A stretch of DNA of 64,000 nt, taken from positions 217,187-281,186 of IMG/VR virus record IMGVR_UViG_3300028886_000035; one strand, 5' to 3'. The notes beneath the pieces were generated by a model. The model saw only the letters and a program-made list of their open reading frames with translations. It ran no database searches and had not been told where the DNA came from. The stretch comes from a virus (Duplodnaviria > Caudoviricetes). The position numbers and the translations under genes were made by a program. Position 1 is the stretch's first letter, and every line of letters begins with the position of its first letter. This document shows positions 3,801 through 36,371 of this stretch, piece by piece.

Positions 3801-6590
3801 TATTTTATTCATTTTCTCACCTCCATTATATTTTATTTTAGCATTAATAAGTCTTAACACGGTATTACCACTATCCATTTAGGATTTAGGTTCTCTTACG
3901 AAGTCGATTAAAACTTCTACCGTTTTCACAATATGTTTCTTACTGATTAAAGTAAGCCCCATTTATCTAGGGAAGATGCTCGTCTCGCCATGTCCTAATC
4001 CTGCTTCTTGTGCAAGCAGTAAATGCTTCATAGCTAAACGTCCTTCTTCAGACGTATCTAACCCAAAATTTAAGGAACTAAATGGCACTTGAGAGCCAGC
4101 TCTCGAATTATGAACAAAAATACAATTAGATGTTAAGAAAGTCTCATTGTCTGCAACAGACATATCATAAACATATTCTTCTTCACTATTACTTTCCGTT
4201 ACTTTTTCAATAAATAATGGATATATATGTGAAGCAGGAATGAATTTATTATCATCAATTGCTTTTGTGTCAATAATTTCTTTTTTTACACGATTAAATT
4301 TTGGTTTCCTACCATCAATATTACGACTTAATAAATTCTTCAAAAAATCAAAATCATAATAAATATATTCTGCTCGTACATTATTTTGATTTAAATCTTT
4401 CAAATTCAAACGATTTGCAGTATTAGAATTAAAACTAATATCATATCCATTATATGTTCCATAAGACGTTTTCCTGTTATATGTATTGTGAATATGAGAC
4501 ATTTCATTCATTGACAAAATCATTAATTGAATTTGAGAACGTAACGTTTCTGAAACAGTTGTAGCCCCAATATATGTTGGTTTTATACTACCATCACATT
4601 TAAAATACCCTTCCAAAAATGCAGATTGAACTTCTTTTGTTCCAAACATAATTTGCATTGGAATTTTTTTCTCATGTGCATTTCTACCGAAATAATATTT
4701 AAATGCGTCCGACCAAACTTTACCAACATTAAATCTTATATCCTTTGGTTTACCATTAGGCATAGAATATTTATTATATGTTACTTTTTCATTATAGCAT
4801 TCTTTCATTAATGATAACAATTCTTGTTCTTTAGTTTCATCACAAGTGGTAAAGCATAATTGACTATCACCAACAATAGAACCTTCTGCAACATAATACC
4901 CTGCCAATTTACCAAAAGAAGGATTTACTACAATATGATTTTCTGTATAATTTTGTTTTGTACGTGAATGGAATTTATCTAAACTAATATCATTTTTCAC
5001 ATTAAAAACAAAATTTCTTGGCATTAATACATTTGGTACACTTTCAGGATAATCTTCAGCAATTTTACCTGCGTTATTAAGATACATTACTTTATGATTG
5101 TCTGTTGTCGTAACTGATGCTCCTGATGTTGTATGAATTGTAATCAATCTACGATGATTATTTTTTCTTTCAATATCAGTAATATCTTTTAATTCTGCTA
5201 CACCTGTATTTTGATTTAATGAAATAGCCTGATAACGACCTTTTTCATAAATCTCATGTAGTTTACCAATTTGCATTACTTTTAATTCTTCTTCTTGTTT
5301 ATCATAAACAAAAATTGTTGAAGAATATGGTAAACAATGCATCGAATTTAGATTGAAAATAACGCTTTCCATAGCTTGATGTGTTTCTTCTTCTACACGC
5401 TTACAAGCCAGCTTATAAGCATTTTTAAATAGCTTATTTAATTCTTTATCATCTGTTAGTTTATCAATGTTTTTATCATTTTTATACGTTGGATATTCGT
5501 TCTGTTTTTGTTTCAAAATCTCGTCTACAGTATCTTCTGATACATCAGAAACCATAGCAAGGTTTTTAGCACATTCCTCAAATTCTTTCTTAAAAGAACG
5601 TCTTACACCTTCTGCCATAGCTCTATCAAAGTCCTGAATTGATTGTCCACCAAACATGTTATTCTGCGAAGATTGCAACACGATGCAAGCTAAACTTGCA
5701 GCAGAACGAATACTTTGCGGTTCTCTAATATATGAGCTACCAATTTTAAAACCGTCTTTAAATGTCTTTTGTAAATCCACCTGGAGGCAGTTGAATGTTA
5801 GCTCTGAAAAATCCTTGTCCTCTCACAGTAGACAGTTGTCTATTGCAGATTGACTATATCATCTAAGATAGGCACTTCCACATATTTTTAACATATATGT
5901 ACTCCATAAATGGATAGTCGATTAACTTAATTTACAAAAAATGTAAATGTTAGCACAGGATTCTACTTATATAAAGTCATTCCCTGTTAGCACAATTTCT
6001 AAATGTCATTTCCTACATTTCCTATACGTAAATTGTACACCTGATATTTTATCAGTTCACCTATTTTTTTATCCACAATAAGATTCATGGATATGAATAT
6101 ATCCTGCTCTATGAGCATCAATATATCTCTTCGGAATAATGTAATTATCATTAAAGAAATTACTTACTGTTGTCCCATAAATTAACATTGAACCCATTGG
6201 TTCATCTGATTGAATATTAGCATTACTACGTTTGTAATCTGATTCTTCACCAGATTGAAATGTAATATCCATCATTTTTTTCATAAGTTCTTCATGTGTA
6301 TCACGAATTTTTGCGTGTTCCGAACGATAAATAATATACGATTTAGCAGTATGTTCCCAATTTGACTTCATGAGAACATTTTCCACTTCGTCTTGAATAC
6401 TTTCTACTGAAGGTGCTTTTACATCTTCAAATTTTTCTTCAATCTGACTTACCATCCCCCAAATAATCGAATTATTCATTCTCTTATCTTTGGAATCATT
6501 GTTAGCTTTCTTAATCGCATTAAATATCTTATGCGAATCGTAGTCAACAACTTTTCCATTACGTTTTCTTACTTTTTGCAAGTGATTCAC
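835..6590 (-). CDS. nrdD: Anaerobic ribonucleoside-triphosphate reductase. Exons 6590-6087, 5819-3969, 2977-2873, 2613-2537, 1747-835; about 739 aa after intron and intein removal
   Basis: ATP cone. Joined exons restore IHIH|DKDF..NC, NSMH|SRAGSQVPFSS, IFP|ITIF, RLFP|NF and ATM|GCRT. ATPAES, YFTNS and two CxxC motifs present. Confidence 0.95.
1748..2536 (-). mobile_element. Group I intron 4 of nrdD (carries HNH ORF)
   Basis: Splits ATG as AT|G; ends in G; ACGACTA/ATAGTC P7-type motifs. Confidence 0.9.
1877..2425 (-). CDS. Intron-encoded NUMOD4-HNH endonuclease
   Basis: WKEIKGY..YLISNFG, HRLVA, VNHIDGNKLN...NLEW...N. Confidence 0.9.
   Translation of the reverse strand: MQELWKEIKGYNGRYLISNFGQVKNKDGRLLIGDKNNCGYRRVCLSNPHKRFFIHRLVAYYFCNPPINYSTLVVNHIDGNKLNCRYDNLEWCTRSENDKHAFKNGLRKVHKNHYKTTWCPIIIYSDKDRNNVIREFDERKQFADYYDKSYLSVDGIIKRGYFIYKNKKFYVSTYRKTIKHIY
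2614..2872 (-). mobile_element. Group I intron 3 of nrdD (ORF-less, paralog of intron 2)
   Basis: Inserted after TTCCCT; ends in G before AAT TTT; core nearly identical to intron 2. Confidence 0.9.
2978..3968 (-). mobile_element. Group I intron 2 of nrdD (carries endonuclease ORF)
   Basis: Inserted after TTCCCT; ends in G before ATA ACT; CCCU/GGGG P1 and GACTA/TAGTC P7. Confidence 0.9.
3120..3812 (-). CDS. Intron-encoded HNH-like (His-Me finger) homing endonuclease
   Basis: WRNMLSRCY..YGG.GVTVC.RW..F..F..D, LDKD, VYS.DTC; SD GGAGGTG before MNKIF. Confidence 0.75.
   Translation of the reverse strand: MNKIFKTNTGLEYKINYDYIKNGNHYYEIEFLRTHSKRTVLKQALNQGCIKDLFYPTLYGIGYMGNATSKMNKRACTLWRNMLSRCYNSHNKKDFSSYGGLGVTVCNRWHCFEYFLEDLSKIDGYNEKEFNDGILCLDKDIKQKGLLPSQKVYSLDTCMFISNEINIKYRNTEQYSKHFIAISPDNDLMIIHGIVHFCKIYNFSPGSVKLRLDKKLFKPYHGWNFFSINN
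4107..5336 (-). mobile_element. Intein (410 aa) with LAGLIDADG endonuclease in NrdD
   Basis: Starts CLPYS, block B TTDNH, LAGYYVAEG and FLEGYFKCDG, ends VHN followed by S. Confidence 0.95.
5820..6086 (-). mobile_element. Group I intron 1 of nrdD (ORF-less)
   Basis: Interrupts CAT|GAC (IHIH|D); terminal G; AATCCTGTGCTAA and GACTA/TAGTC motifs. Confidence 0.9.
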
Positions 6591-15223: not shown

Positions 15224-15397
15224 TTAATTTTCATCATTAACACCTTGTAAAGATAATAGGAAAACTCCAAATGTAATAAACATATATGCCAATACATATA
15301 TTACCATTTGCATAAACCCGCAGAAATACCATCCAAAGCCAACAATTAACCAAAAAATAATTAGCCACATTAATACTAAAATTACCAACCAATTCAT
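15224..15397 (-). CDS. Small membrane protein
   Basis: Starts MNWLV; two TM segments. Confidence 0.5.
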   Translation of the reverse strand: MNWLVILVLMWLIIFWLIVGFGWYFCGFMQMVIYVLAYMFITFGVFLLSLQGVNDEN

Positions 15398-15429
15398 ATT
15401 ACAAACCTTCTTTCCAATATATATAGAAA

Positions 15430-15938
15430 AATGGATAACAATTACCAAAACTTTTATGAAAGGAGAAATAAAAGTTATATACTTATACAAGTACTTTGAT
15501 AATTCGTTATCCACAAAAGAACCTTTTGTATGTTTTATTTTATTTGTATCCCGCATACTGCGTCAAGCACCTTGAAAAGTTCTTTTACACATTGGAACAA
15601 GAACTGTTTAAAAGAATGTTTTTATATCCTATAATAATCCAAAACGTATTCTGACATTATCGTTTAACAGTAAAAACGCCAATCCTTACTGTTTCATCAA
15701 CGTATTTATATATCGCTATCTATAAATACCGTCCTTTGGCAAGAACTAAAAAGATAGGGAAACTCTTTTTATTGATGAATAGTCTTTTGTGTTTAGACTA
15801 TCTATAAATTATCAAAATATAAAAACTTTAATTCTTTAGGGATTTCTTATTCTCGTTTATTCCCTTCATACTAATATTCACCGTTTGCATAAATTCCCTA
15901 AGTGAATACAGGCACTTATCTGGGTTTCTCACCCACTT
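15430..15938 (-). ncRNA. Candidate large structured ncRNA (~510 nt) downstream of tnpB
   Basis: Own TTGACA-N18-TATAAT promoter; many hairpins; no credible ORF. Confidence 0.6.
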
Positions 15939-15988
15939 CTCTATTATAACATAGATTAAACGGTTTTGTCAATCATTTTCTTGTATTT

Positions 15989-17077
15989 TTAATCAATAAC
16001 TCTTACTCTACGTGTATGCAATTTTAAATTTTGCTTGCAATTTTTCCATTGAATAATTTTCTTTTTCTTATTATCAATGTTATCTACATATTTTCGGAAA
16101 AAATTATAAGCAGCATTAATATCTGCATTTACATAATTATTATCTTTTGTTCGATATAATCCACGATGTACGCGCCTACCAAAGTGTTTATCTCTTTGCT
16201 TTACACTTTCATCATCATAAAAAGAGCATTGTGAACTATAATCTTCTGCAATACAAGAATACTCCCATTTATTTACTTTGCAAATATGCTTAATGTTTTT
16301 TACAAACAAAGACATACCAAATGCAGTAATATTGTCTCTTTTATAATCCATTCCCATAAATGTATGATATGACAATGATTTTTTTGTTGGAATTTTACCC
16401 ATCAAAATAAAATCTATACCGTTATCAATACAGTATTGTTTTACAATATTTGATGCTTTTTCACAATATGTTCTCAAATAATGATAATGATTGTGCTTTA
16501 TTTTATCAATCTTTTTGGATTCAGAATTAATTCCTTGTAAAAAATTAATTTTCTTTAAACAATAATAATCATATGCTTTTAATTTTTTACCATCGACTAA
16601 AAACGAATCTCCGAAACTTGTCACACAAGCTCCCAAATTATCTACCCCAACATCTATAGCAATCATATGATGTTTTCCTGATTTGCCAATCTCCAAGTCT
16701 AAATAATATTCCTTATTTTTGTACATAATCCATGCAGACAAAATATTTATTTTGTTAGTATCAATATCAAATGGAATAATTAAATTATTTAATTCAATCT
16801 GATTATTCGTAAACCTATTTGGATTGATATAGATATTACGATACCTGTATTTAACCTCTTTATCTGCCTTTGTAGCTCGTTTAATCGTTCTTATGGCACA
16901 TTCTTTATGCAATCGTTCAGGAACAAAATCTAAGTACCTTACAGACGTTTGAAAAGGCTCTTTATGACTTTGTTTCCATAGATATGCTTCATGATATAAT
17001 TGCGAATTATCTAAAAGCATATTCTTAATTTGTTGTTTTTGATAATTATCCAAATTTAATTTAAAAAGTTTATGCAA
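15989..17077 (-). CDS. tnpB: TnpB-family RNA-guided nuclease (rearranged RuvC-II clade, no Zn finger)
   Basis: IAIDVGVDNL, AEDYSSQCSF.D, GRR..RGLY, NADINAAYN. Confidence 0.85.
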   Translation of the reverse strand: MHKLFKLNLDNYQKQQIKNMLLDNSQLYHEAYLWKQSHKEPFQTSVRYLDFVPERLHKECAIRTIKRATKADKEVKYRYRNIYINPNRFTNNQIELNNLIIPFDIDTNKINILSAWIMYKNKEYYLDLEIGKSGKHHMIAIDVGVDNLGACVTSFGDSFLVDGKKLKAYDYYCLKKINFLQGINSESKKIDKIKHNHYHYLRTYCEKASNIVKQYCIDNGIDFILMGKIPTKKSLSYHTFMGMDYKRDNITAFGMSLFVKNIKHICKVNKWEYSCIAEDYSSQCSFYDDESVKQRDKHFGRRVHRGLYRTKDNNYVNADINAAYNFFRKYVDNIDNKKKKIIQWKNCKQNLKLHTRRVRVID

Positions 17078-21464: not shown

Positions 21465-21581
21465 TCTTTTATACCTTCTTTCTATGGATTCATTTCCTCA
21501 AAACAAAAAGCACGATAATTTAATCACCATATTATCGTACTTTTGTTAAAGGAGAACTGCCAAGAAATCAGAAATTCAAAC

Positions 21582-21639
21582 ACAAGACACATTATGATTT
21601 CCTATCAATAATCAATAAATGATTGCTGAAAGTGTCTTT
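21582..21639 (-). ncRNA. CAGCAA-stem RNA, copy 2 (own promoter ~21703-21677, terminator ~21503-21546)
   Basis: AAGACAC-TTT-CAGCAA...GTGTCTTGT. Confidence 0.75.
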
Positions 21640-21721
21640 ACTTGTATGAAATACTTCCTGCATTTCATACTTATATATTATCACATTTAATCTCATTTGT
21701 CAATATCAGATAACATATTTC

Positions 21722-21870
21722 CTCCTTTCGCTAAAGTTACAAATGCTTGTCGTATTCGACCACACTAGGTTAACTGTTCCTACCTATCAGAGCTGTTTAC
21801 AGAACCTACTTAGAGCCTAGAACTAGGGTATCATTCTAGGGTAAGATAACATAAACAACGTAGTACTAAC
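21722..21870 (-). ncRNA. Orphan IscB omega-RNA (HEARO-like) scaffold
   Basis: CTACGTT..GTTAT...CCTAGTT..GCTCT...TAAACAG.TCTGAT.GGTAGGAACAGT...TAAC.TT.GCGAA signature; no iscB ORF follows. Confidence 0.6.
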
Positions 21871-21960
21871 ATCATATACCATAAACTTTCTTTATCTTCA
21901 TCAAAATTATTATAGTAATTTTTTGCTGAAACTCTATATTTTTTATCAAAAGGAGGTGGA

Positions 21961-22008
21961 AGGTGTGGCTCCTCTCATGACTGAAGTCACGAGTCTCCGC
22001 CGCACCTG
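21961..22008 (-). mobile_element. IS200/IS605-type end hairpin relic
   Basis: GGTGCGGC..CTCGTGACTTCAGTCATGAG..GCCACACC. Confidence 0.55.
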
Positions 22009-22009
22009 T

Positions 22010-22468
22010 CTATGAATGCCTTATATCCATTTCCTCGTATGCTTTCCAGTTGAATACGATAAGTTTATTCAGGAACTCTTCAATCTTATCAATTAGCCTT
22101 TCTATGTTGCTATTAAGGCAAAAAGAAAGTGGCGAGATTTTTGCGCGGAATTCTGGTGTCGCATGTTCATCATTATCATAAAAACAATCGAGCCTACATT
22201 TTTTCGCCATGGCGAGTACATTATTTCTTTCTTCTGGAATTAAACAGATAGAATTATGGATACAGAAATCATCGTCTTGTAAGATAAGCGTATCCATATC
22301 ATCTTCAAGGAGAAGAACTATCGACATACCATCGCCGTCAAGCCAATATCTATATGGAAATACGATGATAAAACCATCATTAATTGATTCAATCTGATAG
22401 TTCGTATACATTTTAAGACATTGTTTGATAGGCTCAAGTTTTTTAGCTTTCGCTTCTGCCAGATACAT
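22010..22468 (-). CDS. Hypothetical protein
   Basis: SD GAGGTG. Confidence 0.6.
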   Translation of the reverse strand: MYLAEAKAKKLEPIKQCLKMYTNYQIESINDGFIIVFPYRYWLDGDGMSIVLLLEDDMDTLILQDDDFCIHNSICLIPEERNNVLAMAKKCRLDCFYDNDEHATPEFRAKISPLSFCLNSNIERLIDKIEEFLNKLIVFNWKAYEEMDIRHS

Positions 22469-26132: not shown

Positions 26133-26312
26133 ACAAGACGCATAAATCACTTGTGATGTGCAATAAGTGTTATAGGTTATATATTGTATTGAAAGGAGAG
26201 ATACAATATAATTATTACGTTAAAGTCAAATCTTTGAAATGAGTAAGCAGACTTTTCGTAAAAACATTTAATATGTTTTAGTATTATGTAAATGATTGCT
26301 GATTGCGCCTTT
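26133..26312 (-). ncRNA. CAGCAA-stem RNA, copy 4
   Basis: AAGGCGC-AAT-CAGCAA...GCGTCTTGT; several internal hairpins. Confidence 0.75.
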
Positions 26313-29092: not shown

Positions 29093-30538
29093 ATGAATAT
29101 TTGCATTCAAAATCTTATTGACAACAAACCGAAAGCCATTCTATTAAGTGGATTACCTGGTTCAGGTAAATCTACAACTGCTATATTTTTTCGTCAAAAT
29201 GGATATTTTATCATCTGTAAAGACGATATTCGCCACAGATTAGCTTGCCGTAGATATTATTACAAACCTGAAACATTCTTTGAGCAGAGTCAACTACATC
29301 AATTTTCAAAACTTGTTCATACAGTAAACGAAAATATTTGTTTTGCTTATCAACAATACCTTAAAGGAAAAGATAAATTCGATATTATCGACAAAACTAA
29401 AACTAGATTTTATCGTGGTTATCATAATATGAATAATCAAGATATTATTTTTGATACTATTAAATCCTATATCATCGAATTTACAGAACATAATTTAAAT
29501 CAAGGTATTGTTTTTGACGCTACTTATCTTACTACAAAATCACGCTGTTCAATTATTCAAAATATAAAACTACCGATTTATTGTATCTTCTACTCTATTC
29601 CGTCTGATATTGCCTATAAGCGTGTTCTAAACCGTTCTAAAACCATTATATCCTATTATCACGAAAAGTCAGTCTACGGTCGTTTTGTCCCTATGCAATC
29701 TATTAAACGTATGGAATCTACAATTACTATTCCGAATCAAAATGAAGGATTTAATGATGTATTCATTATTCCTTATAAAACCATCGAAAATAAATCAACA
29801 CAAATCATGGATTTCATTACTAATTTCAAATGCAATCAGGAATATCATGATTTGGCTATGGATTCGTTTCCGTCCTTCAGTCAAACAAATAATCTGTCAC
29901 AACATAATGAAAATCATTATTATACCGTTGATTGGCATATGATGTACGCTACTGAATATGTAAAAAAATATTCTAAAGACAAAGCTCTTATTTTAGCTAC
30001 TTTGTTACATGATGTAGGTAAATTCGATACTAAAGCCTTTTATATTAAATTGACTAAACCAATTGATAATTATAAAGAAGGTAAAAAATTCAAAGTCAAA
30101 TATATTTTAAACAGGCAGACATATGTTTGTCAAAATACTTTTAATTTTGATATTGTGTACATTGATAAAAACTATGCAACTTTTGATATGAATGCGCATT
30201 ACTATGCACATCAATATACTTCTGCTATTAAAGCATATAATGATTTAATCTCTTTAAACGTAAATCATGATTTTGCTTACAAAGTTTATCTATATATATA
30301 TTTTCATATGTATATTCCGTTCCATCATACTATTACTTATAAAGAGTTATATACATTGAAAAATTATTTAACCAAAGACGAATGTAAAAACCTTCTCTTA
30401 CTCCGTCAAGCAGACCAATATTCACAACACATTCAACGTAATATAAAACAGTTCCATGATAATTTTCAGTTAAATGAAATGTATAATAAAGATGAGATGC
30501 TAATTAATGATATTTACAAAACAAATTATTTTAAATAA
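29093..30538 (+). CDS. P-loop polynucleotide kinase fused to an HD phosphohydrolase (RNA end healing)
   Basis: GLPGSGKST, KDDIR, FDAT; H...H...LLHDVGK...H...H...AD. Confidence 0.8.
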   Translation: MNICIQNLIDNKPKAILLSGLPGSGKSTTAIFFRQNGYFIICKDDIRHRLACRRYYYKPETFFEQSQLHQFSKLVHTVNENICFAYQQYLKGKDKFDIIDKTKTRFYRGYHNMNNQDIIFDTIKSYIIEFTEHNLNQGIVFDATYLTTKSRCSIIQNIKLPIYCIFYSIPSDIAYKRVLNRSKTIISYYHEKSVYGRFVPMQSIKRMESTITIPNQNEGFNDVFIIPYKTIENKSTQIMDFITNFKCNQEYHDLAMDSFPSFSQTNNLSQHNENHYYTVDWHMMYATEYVKKYSKDKALILATLLHDVGKFDTKAFYIKLTKPIDNYKEGKKFKVKYILNRQTYVCQNTFNFDIVYIDKNYATFDMNAHYYAHQYTSAIKAYNDLISLNVNHDFAYKVYLYIYFHMYIPFHHTITYKELYTLKNYLTKDECKNLLLLRQADQYSQHIQRNIKQFHDNFQLNEMYNKDEMLINDIYKTNYFK

Positions 30539-32912: not shown

Positions 32913-33198
32913 TTTATGTCCACTCCATATAATTCTTTTTATCTTATATTATAATGCATTCATGTATTTTGTCAATAGGTTTAATTATATATCTTAAAAA
33001 GATATAGATGTATAAATAGAACCATTATATTAAATGTATATGTATAAAGCTAGATATATGTATAAATAAATAGAGAACTAGATAGATATATAGATAGATA
33101 TAAGGTTATAGATGAACATGTATAATAATATTGATTCCATAATGGACATTTTATCACATATAAAAAAGAGACACTTCCTTGTGTCTCTTTTAACTATA

Positions 33199-34749
33199 TT
33201 AAAGGACTTGTTTAACCACGTCATAGCGTGAGTTATCAAGAACCTTTTTTAGTGCTTTCCAAGGGTCAAGTTCTCCACTAATAACCATATCAAGGATATT
33301 TTTAGAGAAGCCACTCACAAGAACAACACCGTTTTCGTTCTGCTGGAGAGGAATACCACTTGTACGAGAATTAACATTCCAAAATACAAGGCGTGGGAGT
33401 TTATATCCTGCATCAGTAAACTTTTTAGAAATCGTCTCCATAAGCACTTCATCGTCCATAGATTTTTTTCCACTCCAATAGTCATAACGACCATGAGCGT
33501 AGTCAAATTCCATGTCACTAATGATAAGAATATTTGCAGGAAGTTCTTCCTGAGTCAAATGATTCTTGATTGCTGCCTTTAGAACGAGGTCAAACGTCTT
33601 TTCCAAATCTGTATTGGAACAGTCATCAAACTGTGACGTTTCCACGAGTCTATCATGGAGAGTGTTCCCATGAAGTGTTACCAATTCAGGAGAAGAACTA
33701 AACGTGATAAACTTATTCTTAAATGCCTTAGTATTGTTTTCTGCACAATACAGACAAATGGAATTAGCAACGTCAAGAGCGGTTGCGCTTGTTTTTTCGA
33801 GCTGAACCGTCATAGAGCCACTACCATCACGAACGACCAAGGTATCTGCTACCATTGGAATTTTATCCTGTGCTTTCCACAATTCTTCCAAAGTGGCATC
33901 TTCCTTTTTAACATTTTTATAACCCCAAAGCGAATTGTTCATATAGTTATGAACAATATCATAAAGGAACATAGCATTGGCATTAATTTTCTCCTTGCCA
34001 TTAGAGAGGTCATCCAAGTATTTCTGGCGACGTTCTTCATCATGGCGCATGAAAGCATCACGATAAATAATATTCGCCTTAGAAGGAACGGCACTATAAT
34101 CAATCTTATCGTAAGATTTACGAGAAAGGTTGACTTCGACAACATTCAAGTACTTGCGAAGTTTTGCAAGGAGTTTACGATACTGACGAGGCTTCAGTTG
34201 CAATTCCTTGCAAAGCATATTGGCAATCGCACGAGTCTCTTTCGATGACGTATTAATAGATGGCATCCACTTTGCAAGTAAAGAGATAGATTTTCCCTCT
34301 TTCATAAGAGCAATATCTTCTCTAAGCTGGTTGTAGATATTTTCCACAATAATTGCTTGAATTGCACTATTCACTTTTGGGTAAATTGCAATCATATCAT
34401 CAAAACGACCATATTCCTCAATAGGAATATCTTTGACAATTTTCATAGCAAGTTCCAAATCGTGTTTTGCAATTTCAACAATCAAACCACGAAAAATTTC
34501 ACGTTCTCCGAGTCCGCCACGAATATCACGGCTAAAGAGAAGCCAACGCAACGCATATTCAGGACTCTCATCATATGCGTCCATAAAAAACCCATAGTTA
34601 ACGCTATTATTGCCCCTAATGGCATTTGCACGCATCTGCGGAACTTTGAAGTTCAGGTCAACGATAGACTTACCGCTAGAAGCGAACATCGTAGCACCGT
34701 TTTCCGTTTCAACCGTCTGCGTATTTTTCATAGCATTGAAAATATCCAT
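33199..34749 (-). CDS. DUF2828 family TROVE/Ro60-like helical + vWA protein
   Basis: TENGA, RDIRGGLGER, EYGRFDD, LLAKWMPS, MIDAS DGSGSM...T...SDMEFD, FWNV, VSGFS. Confidence 0.85.
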   Translation of the reverse strand: MDIFNAMKNTQTVETENGATMFASSGKSIVDLNFKVPQMRANAIRGNNSVNYGFFMDAYDESPEYALRWLLFSRDIRGGLGEREIFRGLIVEIAKHDLELAMKIVKDIPIEEYGRFDDMIAIYPKVNSAIQAIIVENIYNQLREDIALMKEGKSISLLAKWMPSINTSSKETRAIANMLCKELQLKPRQYRKLLAKLRKYLNVVEVNLSRKSYDKIDYSAVPSKANIIYRDAFMRHDEERRQKYLDDLSNGKEKINANAMFLYDIVHNYMNNSLWGYKNVKKEDATLEELWKAQDKIPMVADTLVVRDGSGSMTVQLEKTSATALDVANSICLYCAENNTKAFKNKFITFSSSPELVTLHGNTLHDRLVETSQFDDCSNTDLEKTFDLVLKAAIKNHLTQEELPANILIISDMEFDYAHGRYDYWSGKKSMDDEVLMETISKKFTDAGYKLPRLVFWNVNSRTSGIPLQQNENGVVLVSGFSKNILDMVISGELDPWKALKKVLDNSRYDVVKQVL

Positions 34750-34904
34750 TATTGCATCTTTCCTTTCAATTTGTGTTTCGTTTAACTGTTGTTTTTAGTA
34801 TATCACATAGTTTTTTATATGTCAACAGTTTTTTGAAAAATATTTAATAAAACATATAAAAGTATTTGTTTTTAATAATATATAAATTTAATATAAAAAT
34901 GTCA

Positions 34905-34942
34905 AGGAAAAAGACGTAACTATTTCGCTACGTCTTTTTCCC
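34905..34942 (-). terminator. Terminator after CAGCAA copies 6 and 5
   Basis: GGAAAAAGACGTA/TACGTCTTTTTCC. Confidence 0.7.
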
Positions 34943-35013
34943 GAAAGGAGTATTTTTTGTTTGCCATCCGTCTATCATGAGATATTGATAAATGCTATCA
35001 CAGAAAGGAGGAA

Positions 35014-35080
35014 ACAAGATTCTTAAAAAACTGTAGATTACATAGAAACATTTTTTCAAATAATTGCTGATAGAATCTTT
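35014..35080 (-). ncRNA. CAGCAA-stem RNA, copy 5
   Basis: AAGATTC-TAT-CAGCAA...GAATCTTGT (compensatory stem). Confidence 0.75.
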
Positions 35081-35088
35081 ACATATAT

Positions 35089-35262
35089 ACTAGACACGCA
35101 CATTTATCTTAGGAGGTTTAACCCTGTTATATAAAAGGAGGATATATAAAGGGAGGAGAAAATCATAACGTTTGCCGAACCGCACCGTAATGTGTAAAAT
35201 CGTCATCATTGACTCTGTTATCATTATTGTTCTGTATAAAAAATATTGCTGATTGTGTCTAA
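35089..35262 (-). ncRNA. CAGCAA-stem RNA, copy 6
   Basis: TAGACAC-AAT-CAGCAA...GTGTCTAGT; three anti-SD tracts inside. Confidence 0.75.
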
Positions 35263-35307
35263 AAAATTTATCAATATCTATAAAAATAATATACACAGTA
35301 TTATAAT

Positions 35308-35793
35308 TTATAACCACATTTTTAAAAAATTTAATAAGCCATAAACGCCAATTCCTGTATACATATAATATGTAATAAACGTGTAATTTTTTCTTTTAAT
35401 ATATGATATATATCTTGTCATATATACAATTGGATTTTGTTCAAAATCATAATTGCTAACTTTATCAACGAAATGTTTAATTCTTTTTACTTCAAAGAAA
35501 GTAAAAAATAAAATAATTACAAAACAAGGCAATAACCAAATAGCATTTGTAATTGAATATGTTACATAACACATAAACAAACTAAATGCTATTTCTGCCA
35601 AATCGACAATCATAACTGATTGGAATAAGGTAGTATGAATACCTTTTTCTCGTTTTAATAACGTATCGAATAGGTTAATGGTATCTTGTAATTTTTCTTT
35701 ACTCTTACGTTCACTTTTTGTACTGAAATTAGCATATGCGTGATGTAAATTTAATGCAACAAAAGCAATATAAGCTAAAAATATCCAAGCCAT
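35308..35793 (-). CDS. Membrane protein
   Basis: About four TM segments. Confidence 0.6.
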   Translation of the reverse strand: MAWIFLAYIAFVALNLHHAYANFSTKSERKSKEKLQDTINLFDTLLKREKGIHTTLFQSVMIVDLAEIAFSLFMCYVTYSITNAIWLLPCFVIILFFTFFEVKRIKHFVDKVSNYDFEQNPIVYMTRYISYIKRKNYTFITYYMYTGIGVYGLLNFLKMWL

Positions 35794-36371
35794 TACAATT
35801 TAACACCTTCCCAATAACCAAATTGTTGATATATACTATCTTTGTGTTTTGTGTCTTTTAAATGTTGTAAAAATTCATCTGCACTATGAAATTCTTTGTG
35901 ACAAGTATCACACTCATATTTAAAAACAGGTGGGTTTTCAAATTTTAAAAACTTATAGCACTTCTTTATTATATCTTCTTTTTCATATACTGTAATTAAA
36001 AAACCATTAAATGTACATTCAATTAATTCTTTACTAAATTGTTGTAAGTTTTCAATATCTACTTTATCTACAGGATAAAACATATGAAAGTCAAATTCAC
36101 TTAAAACAAGTTGTTGTGTATCAGATACAATATCAGTAATAACATGAATATCATAAATATTTTGTTTTACATTATATTCACAATAAAAATTATCACATTT
36201 TACACGGCAACCAAACATAGAAACTTTTTCATTTACTAACGCTTGAAGTGTTTCTAAAAAAAACATAAACACATCTTCATTATTATTATTTTTTTTATAA
36301 ATATCAAATGCTTTATATAAACGTATATTGTTATTTTGTATCCATTTTTCATCAATTAAATAATTGTTCAT
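35793..36371 (-). CDS. Protein with a C-terminal C2H2 zinc finger
   Basis: YECDTCHKEFHSADEFLQHLKDTKH. Confidence 0.65.
   Translation of the reverse strand: MNNYLIDEKWIQNNNIRLYKAFDIYKKNNNNEDVFMFFLETLQALVNEKVSMFGCRVKCDNFYCEYNVKQNIYDIHVITDIVSDTQQLVLSEFDFHMFYPVDKVDIENLQQFSKELIECTFNGFLITVYEKEDIIKKCYKFLKFENPPVFKYECDTCHKEFHSADEFLQHLKDTKHKDSIYQQFGYWEGVKL

Follow-up and report, generated by a model that had tools for sequence, protein, structure and literature searches.

Clustered anti-Shine-Dalgarno tracts in minus-strand Y-like RNAs of a large gut phage

Five short CU-rich tracts that carry the complement of the Shine-Dalgarno (SD) core are clustered within 216 nt on the minus strand of a phage genome, in RNAs that resemble bacterial Y RNAs and precede the gene of a protein with a predicted Ro60 fold. 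The tracts are probably functional, since related phages keep the CCUCCU stretches, and sequence comparison points to pairing with mRNA start regions as their most likely role. The window, i.e., the whole stretch of DNA analysed here, takes up the final 64 kb of the IMG/VR record of a rumen phage, which is 281 kb long with 28% G+C; a search of sequencing runs located the phage in bovine and pig gut samples. The tract interval lies within a 558-nt minus-strand spacer, between a 161-aa gene (35308-35793) and the gene of a 516-aa DUF2828/DUF7788 protein. A blastn search of this spacer at distant settings against the GenBank phage collection gave no match.

Related loci, 84 in number, were gathered via the DUF2828 protein; loci are denoted below by L numbers. 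Among the relatives used for comparison, L092 represents the same phage in another strain, whereas L093, L110 and L114 share 83% identity in the DUF2828 protein, L108 shares 81% and L109 shares 64%.

Clustering of the tracts

The preliminary description had placed eight anti-SD motifs on the minus strand and had drawn hairpins in copy 6, copy 4 and a large non-coding RNA (ncRNA). All eight motifs were recovered at the positions it gave, and the three hairpin contexts were reproduced (Table 1; the copies are the Y-like elements treated in the next section).

Table 1. Positions of the tracts, RNA elements, regulatory signals and gene in the window.
Feature	Position	Strand	Description
T1	35148..35158	minus	CUCCUCCCUUU; in copy 6; not conserved
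T2 hairpin	35128..35148	minus	UAUAUA arms, 9-nt loop UCCUCCUUU (35134-35142); in copy 6
T3	35111..35117	minus	ACCUCCU, single-stranded (predicted); between T2 hairpin and 3' closing strand of copy 6
T4	35002..35011	minus	CCUCCUUUCU; 4 nt 3' of copy 5; lineage-specific; predicted paired
T5	34943..34950	minus	CUCCUUUC; directly 5' of terminator stem
Copy-4 hairpin	26181..26210	minus	10-bp stem, 11-nt loop CUCUCCUUUCA
Copy-2 tail tract	21548..21554	minus	CUCCUUU; linker from copy 2 (21584-21638) to terminator-like hairpin
Large-ncRNA hairpin	15449..15476	minus	9-bp stem, 10-nt loop UUCUCCUUUC (15458-15467)
Y-like RNA copy 6	35091..35261	minus	171 nt; closed by 7 bp, with N3, CAGCAA and a long insert with three CU tracts
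Y-like RNA copy 5	35016..35079	minus	64 nt; stem AAGAUUC/GAAUCUU
Y-like RNA copy 4	26135..26311	minus	177 nt; 7 nt before tRNA-Leu(CAA)
Long-range helix	5' arm 35266..35279, 3' arm 34980..34993	minus	14-bp perfect; encloses copies 6 and 5
Intrinsic terminator of ncRNA unit	34905..34942	minus	conserved in L093
Two sigma-70-type promoters of DUF2828 gene	34797..34905	minus	11/12 each; downstream of ncRNA terminator
DUF2828+DUF7788 protein gene	33199..34749	minus	516 aa; Pfam; RBS UUGAAAGGAAAG
Copy-4 promoter	26370-26342	minus	12/12
Copy-2 unit promoter	21703-21675	minus	
Large-ncRNA promoter	15972-15943	minus	12/12

An anti-SD locus was defined as CCTCC or CTCCTT, and 5000 dinucleotide-preserving shuffles served as the null. 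The window phage contains five such loci in 375 nt as compared with a mean of 0.17 in the shuffled sequences, none of which reached five. The corresponding regions of L093 (three loci, 0.06 expected) and L109 (four loci, 0.11 expected) were likewise not equalled in any of 5000 shuffles, and chance or base composition as the full explanation is ruled out by the shuffles in these three lineages. SD-like words are absent from the same strand of the clustered regions of the window phage, L093 and L109. Genome-wide, GGAGG or AAGGAG in antisense orientation to the local genes was matched 29 times across 53.6 kb of non-coding sequence, at roughly 24 distinct sites by hand count, and five of these distinct sites fall within the tract interval. 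Across the entire 281-kb genome, the minus strand has six occurrences of the exact 8-mer of T5; reading of the contexts by eye assigned two of these occurrences to complements of plus-strand gene ribosome-binding sites (RBSs) and the other four to ncRNA loci.

A scan for hairpins with CU loops was rejected as a test of strand asymmetry, being confounded by the opposite-strand complements of true SDs. At 21947-21977 (minus), past the stop codon of gene 22010-22468, CCACCUCCUUUUG forms the 3' arm of a hairpin whose other arm is GAGAGGAG; this is an ordinary terminator-like stem and not a displayed anti-SD.

Y-like RNA elements and the DUF2828 protein

The six copies in the window, identified with an element finder, share a 7-bp stem, N3, the motif CAGCAA, a variable insert of 40-177 nt, and the 3' strand of the stem followed by G. 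Copies 4 and 3 are positioned 6-7 nt ahead of tRNA genes on the minus strand, and copies 5 and 6, co-oriented with the DUF2828 gene, precede its start by 267-512 nt. In the 84 related loci, 250 CAGCAA-stem elements are found on the strand of the DUF2828 gene and none on the other, with rich covariation in their 7-bp terminal stems. The motif, which is CAGCGA in some elements, is similar but not identical to the GNCGAA / GGUCCGA of Y RNAs. One relative (L011:5807-5929) matches the Rfam family YrlA (RF02553) with 43 bits and E=5e-7, below the gathering score of 69; this element holds a permuted tRNA-like module, and its motif aligns to the 5' motif of the YrlA consensus. None of the window copies matched YrlA at E<=1. 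Rfam searches at the gathering level and at E<=1 likewise gave no match for the Y-like copies and tract regions of the window, and elsewhere yielded only tRNAs and a HEARO-like match.

The AlphaFold model of the DUF2828 protein has a pLDDT of 84, and the best 13 matches in a fold search of this model against the PDB are all Ro60/TROVE structures, including the Ro60 of a Thermus phage and Xenopus Ro60-RNA complexes. The link to Ro60 comes from the fold search only: a sequence-profile search against the PDB found no match, and Pfam found no TROVE match in the protein. As modelled, the DUF2828 protein of the window has a Ro60 fold. In view of the strand-biased CAGCAA architecture, the YrlA match of a relative and the Ro60-fold model, the window RNAs are Y-RNA analogues and putative partners of the Ro60-like DUF2828 protein.

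The assignment of the tracts to minus-strand non-coding RNAs, as made in the preliminary description, is supported by promoters, a terminator, the strand bias of the CAGCAA elements and the G.U pairs of the Y-like stems, which become mismatches if read from the plus strand. Minus-strand consensus sigma-70 promoters (10/12-12/12, all with an extended -10 TG) directly precede copy 2, copy 4 and the large RNA. The terminator of the ncRNA unit is bidirectional because of its symmetry, and the main DUF2828 mRNA is without tracts, since its promoters sit downstream of this terminator. The terminator-like hairpin of copy 2 was read by eye, its 11-nt loop being above the limit of the scanner. The 14-bp helix around copies 6 and 5 recurs in L093 with an identical 272-nt spacing and one compensatory change; judged by sequence, it looks like a candidate precursor stalk for RNase III-type processing. 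Contigs from RNA libraries bridge 33178-36261, to be read as contigs without strand, ends or reliable level and with possible DNA carry-over.

Several neighbouring elements were recorded in addition. The sequence at 21715-21895 (minus) matches Rfam HEARO (the IscB omega-RNA) with 57 bits and E=1e-9, below the gathering score; at its end stand a perfect SD and a frame of seven codons (MLSDIDK) overlapping with the promoter of copy 2. Judged by sequence, the element looks to be an omega-RNA orphaned by the loss of its IscB gene. The large ncRNA (15425-15972, minus) has a promoter that follows immediately on the stop codon of a TnpB-like gene (OrfB_IS605, 15989-17077), and it extends for about 520 nt without a convincing ORF, to be closed by a long nested terminator-like hairpin. 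It has no Rfam match, and an orthologue of the RNA or its loop was sought in the 83% relative and not found. The 110-aa ORF at 15224-15556 is probably over-extended, with a likely real start at ATG 15396. In L093/L110 (8675-9787), an IS605-family TnpB gene and its RNA end have been inserted between the Y-like RNAs and DUF2828, replacing the 5' UTR. The DUF2828 homologue of L011 (2965-5191) is spread in several frames over 2.2 kb as compared with 1.55 kb, which suggests an insertion, an intron or frameshifts. A 481-aa protein (29093-30538, plus; conserved, with 499 aa, in the L093 lineage) possesses an N-terminal kinase domain of the AAA_33/zeta-toxin type and, near a Ro-like locus, may be a polynucleotide-kinase-like RNA-repair enzyme. 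Finally, a fragment of NrdD (anaerobic ribonucleotide reductase) at 3963-5780 (minus) is split by an intein with a LAGLIDADG domain.

Accessibility, conservation and complementarity

The tracts had been described as displayed, and for T2, T3 and the copy-4 loop the predictions agree. Unpaired probabilities were computed with the closing stem enforced, and whole-RNA means were 0.4-0.5. Against this background, T2 has a probability of about 1.0 in all four orthologues (1.00 in the window), T3 reaches 0.8-0.9 in three of the four (0.88 in the window; 0.41 in L109), and the copy-4 loop gives 1.0 and 0.73. T4, on the other hand, is predicted to pair with a downstream GGAUGG instead of being displayed. 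No purine-rich GGAGG or AAGGAG partner occurs on the same strand in the window RNAs, and the tracts are therefore not simply strands of internal helices.

Three of the five tracts are still present in the orthologous loci whose DUF2828 protein is 83% or 64% identical. The retention of the loops in homologs, on which the original proposal depended, thus holds for T2, T3, T5 and the copy-4 loop, but not for T1 and T4. The order of copy 6, copy 5, tail and terminator is maintained in L093 and L109; orthologues of copy 6 are present in L092, L093 and L109, and those of copy 5 at 8245-8305 in L093 and 9809-9873 in L109. At the nucleotide level, the ncRNA regions of the window phage and L093 are only 60% identical, yet the cores of T2, T3 and T5 are kept. 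The loop core of T2, UCCUCCU, is invariant across lineages, and its stem is wholly replaced in each: UAUAUA/UAUAUA in the window, UUCCAUUG/CAAUGGGA with a U.G pair in L093, and AUAUAUC/GAUAUAU in L109. The T3 core CCUCCU is kept within AAACCUCCUUUC in L093 and GCCUCCUUUCUA in L109, and is extended in relatives to CCUCCUUUC(UA). T5 (ACUCCUU) falls within the longest invariant block (16 nt) of the window-L093 alignment and is located next to the terminator in all four relatives, being kept in L108 and appearing as ACUCCUUCC in L109. The copy-4 loop is also contained in a 16-nt block that is invariant between the window phage and L093. T1 is lost in the near-identical strain L092 through a 3-nt deletion and a C>U change, and is absent in L093. 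T4 is absent at the orthologous place in L093; in L109 a similar tract follows copy 5 at a distance of about 20 nt. Behind the likely orthologue of copy 2 (the element most like it) in L114/L115, the 83% relative, the tail tract of copy 2 is lacking. Two pattern scans of IMG/VR for further orthologues returned five unrelated coding-region matches in one case and none in the other.

Among the more distant relatives, only three of 153 unique Y-like elements carry such tracts (list read by eye), which counts against a role of the tracts as seeds. These elements are mostly short, and many contain mimics of anticodon stem-loops or T-arms and no CU tract. A few long ones possess a CU-rich hairpin loop, namely L011 (UCUCCUUCCUU, 7 bp), L079 (UUGCCUUCCU, 12 bp) and L054 (CACCUCCUUCC). 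A family-wide test on the regions of 54 non-redundant relatives gave 11 anti-SD words as compared with 3.1 expected; this excess is real but was not taken as support for displayed seeds, because it consists largely of CCUCC/GAGG stem extensions. In L033, L037, L058, L071, L073 and L080 (positions ~3880-3970), CCUCC directly 5' of the last element pairs with GAGG/GAAGG directly 3' of it, which lengthens the basal helix shortly before the RBS of DUF2828. These words have a structural role and were therefore not counted in favour of seeds.

In L012-L091, about 40-300 nt upstream of DUF2828, many short CAGCAA elements have 7-nt loops identical to tRNA anticodon loops, e.g., CUUUUAA (tRNA-Lys UUU) and CUGUUAA (Asn), and other elements have a GGTTCAAATCC T-arm. 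Such tRNA-mimicking elements could be decoys or substrates for anticodon nucleases or RNA repair.

The phage uses strong SDs, with 121 GGAGG or AAGGAG words 3-12 nt before the start codon of a frame of at least 40 codons. The invariant cores CUCCU/CCUCCU are the exact complement of the canonical SD core AGGAG(G), and the complementarity of the tracts to the RBSs of the phage itself is confirmed. In the case of the copy-4 block, perfect complementarity of at least 10 nt was found to nine of 386 phage 5' regions, that of DUF2828 included; by duplex energy the DUF2828 RBS ranks second of the 386, and in the L093 lineage it is the best of 31 by contiguous match. This match between the DUF2828 RBS and the copy-4 block, seen in sequence after the fact, is a post-hoc lead and not a result.

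Possible mode of action and comparison with known systems

Our tentative reading is that the tracts are conserved unpaired CU-rich modules which act as antisense seeds against RBSs. Pairing in trans is the simplest reading because the cores exactly complement AGGAG(G) at four independent positions, where they are exposed and lack an internal partner. The CU cores, presented by a hairpin loop, by an unpaired linker and by the stretch directly ahead of a terminator, would base-pair in trans with the RBSs of mRNAs, and such pairing may block 30S binding or alter the fate of the mRNA. The DUF2828 mRNA would be a candidate target via the copy-4 loop, with a feedback between RNA and protein as the outcome. 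The pairing itself, its consequence and any role of DUF2828 in it are inferred. It counts against antisense seeds that the phage genes use the same SD, so that phage mRNAs would be hit by a generic anti-SD RNA too, and that no mechanism to confer selectivity is apparent; T1 and T4 are moreover not conserved, and T4 is predicted to be paired. An extended scheme, in which the DUF2828 protein forms an RNP with the anti-SD-seeded Y-like RNAs and the seeds guide this RNP and a recruited host exonuclease (e.g., PNPase) to RBSs for translational shut-off or decay, appears improbable to us. Host shut-off, marking for decay and carriage by the DUF2828 protein, as proposed in the preliminary description, find no support here.

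The main rival to antisense pairing holds that the CU loops are protein-docking modules of the Y-like RNAs, their SD complementarity being incidental, and that they tether the Ro60-like RNP to a pyrimidine reader, for instance ribosomal protein S1 or host PNPase, which would bind through its KH/S1 domains in a complex of the RYPER type. It is consistent with the predicted Ro60 fold of DUF2828, with the pyrimidine-rich loops already known in the YrlB and Yrn2 Y RNAs, and with the drift of distant loops to CCUUCC (L011, L079), for which a pyrimidine reader accounts no less well than strict pairing with the SD does; moreover, Ro60 and the Yrl RNAs of the Thermus phage phiLo assemble with host PNPase into a ternary complex (PMC12135203). 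However, in the closer clade four independent positions show exactly CCUCCU/CUCCUU as their core and no drift between C and U, some tracts lie beside terminators, away from the Y-like stems, and docking names no partner protein; we hold it to be rather unlikely. Much less credible is the proposal that the tracts mimic the 3' tail of 16S rRNA, as a decoy or pseudo-substrate for an anti-SD reader (the KH domain of Era, hibernation factors, 3'-maturation nucleases or a Ro-like ring). The Firmicute tail ends …CACCUCCUUUCUA, and the tracts share up to 10-11 nt with it, the matches running 3' of CCUCC into UUUCU(A) for 10 nt in window T4, 10 nt in T3 of L093 and 11 nt in T3 of L109. This 3' extension does not discriminate, since it corresponds equally to the A-rich 5' flank of the phage's own RBSs and thus fits RBS pairing just as well. 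In the 5' direction there is no match into GAUCA, with the exception of CA in the distant relative L054; the tracts are internal to small RNAs, rather than 3'-terminal, and lie outside helix 45, and the Firmicute tail used in the comparison may not be that of the host. The threading of single-stranded RNA 3' ends through the Ro60 cavity (PMC4201824, PMC12135203) would suit such a mimic.

A structural role, in which the tracts are helix strands of the RNA or its precursor or sequester a downstream RBS in cis, is similarly hard to credit for the tracts of the window. The CCUCC/GAGG-type pairing around the last element of the six loci listed above and the predicted pairing of window T4 speak for it; against it stand the lack of a GGAGG/AAGGAG partner in the window RNAs, the prediction of T2, T3 and the copy-4 loop as unpaired in every orthologue, and the position of the main DUF2828 mRNA, which starts beyond the ncRNA terminator. 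We find it very improbable that the motifs are instead genuine plus-strand SD sites of tiny ORFs. The preliminary description had seen no credible ORF behind them on the plus strand, and this stands as far as genes are concerned, but T5 is followed at 6 nt by TTG and a 7-codon frame (34957-34980, plus). Indeed, a start codon is found 6-7 nt behind the SD-like word of T5 in all lineages, opening frames of 7 codons (TTG) in the window and L108, 13 (ATG) in L093 and 16 (ATG) in L109. The peptides vary in length and sequence, however, with two differences, both non-synonymous, separating the window from L108; the mini-ORF comes straight after the bidirectional terminator, a scan found no promoter-like site between the two, and the strong promoters are all on the minus strand. 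T1-T4, the copy-4 loop and the copy-2 tail all lack a canonical start at SD spacing, and the U.G pair of the L093 T2 stem would be a C.A mismatch on the plus strand. Plus-strand ORFs account, at most, for the terminator-proximal tract T5. Small minus-strand ORFs over the tracts (44 aa, ATG 35223; 43 aa, TTG 35059) were also rejected, as they lack an SD and are not conserved; in L093, the counterpart of the minus-strand small frame stops directly after CCUCCU.

The extended scheme of a seed-guided RNP, if true, would define an RBS-directed, RNA-guided Ro particle and give pyrimidine-rich Y-RNA loops a defined function. The exact SD complement is kept at several independent positions of the Y-like RNAs while the helices presenting it are rebuilt, and this makes of the vague pyrimidine-rich loop a testable hypothesis, namely pairing with RBSs, by which a Ro-like RNP might be led to mRNAs. 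It also suggests that large phages could tune or shut off translation by RNA instead of protein. The locus offers a compact experimental system, consisting of a 170-nt RNA, two candidate seeds and one putative partner protein.

In Firmicute small RNAs such as RsaE, RoxS and RNAIII, unpaired C-rich motifs in hairpin loops or linkers pair with SD regions. As in these sRNAs, the window RNAs have several C-rich motifs in loops and linkers, with one seed near a terminator hairpin, and the motifs are conserved and predicted to be unpaired while the surrounding helices vary. Unlike the window RNAs, the sRNAs contain UCCC/CCCC rather than CCUCCU, are chromosomal, and are not known to be tied to a Ro-like protein. 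Homology in sequence or structure between the two is lacking, with no Rfam match, and the resemblance is one of proposed working mode and not of membership.

Phage Ro60/Y-RNA particles and pyrimidine-rich Y-RNA loops are already known, the latter without a known link to SD pairing (PMC4201824); the papers searched propose none for YrlB or Yrn2, and in this literature conserved multi-copy anti-SD cores in Y-type RNAs were not found. The Thermus phage phiLo encodes Ro60 with Yrl1 and Yrl2 directly upstream, and the RNP can recruit host PNPase (PMC12135203). Like the phage of the window, phiLo encodes a protein of the Ro60 fold and, just ahead of it, two Y-like RNAs; unlike it, phiLo has a canonical TROVE protein and a CGAA motif, and no anti-SD tracts are mentioned in the passages covered. 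Bacterial Y RNAs (PMC4201824) agree with the window RNAs in that the genes neighbour that of a Ro60-fold protein on the same strand, with several per locus, in that the 5' and 3' ends form a stem with a short conserved motif of differing sequence (GNCGAA there, CAGCAA here), and in their modular inserts, tRNA-like ones among them (here in the element of a relative), some with pyrimidine-rich loops. The window copies differ in belonging to no Rfam family, in having a DUF2828/DUF7788 protein as putative partner, and in carrying exact, conserved CCUCCU cores, several per locus and some of them beside terminators outside the Y stem.
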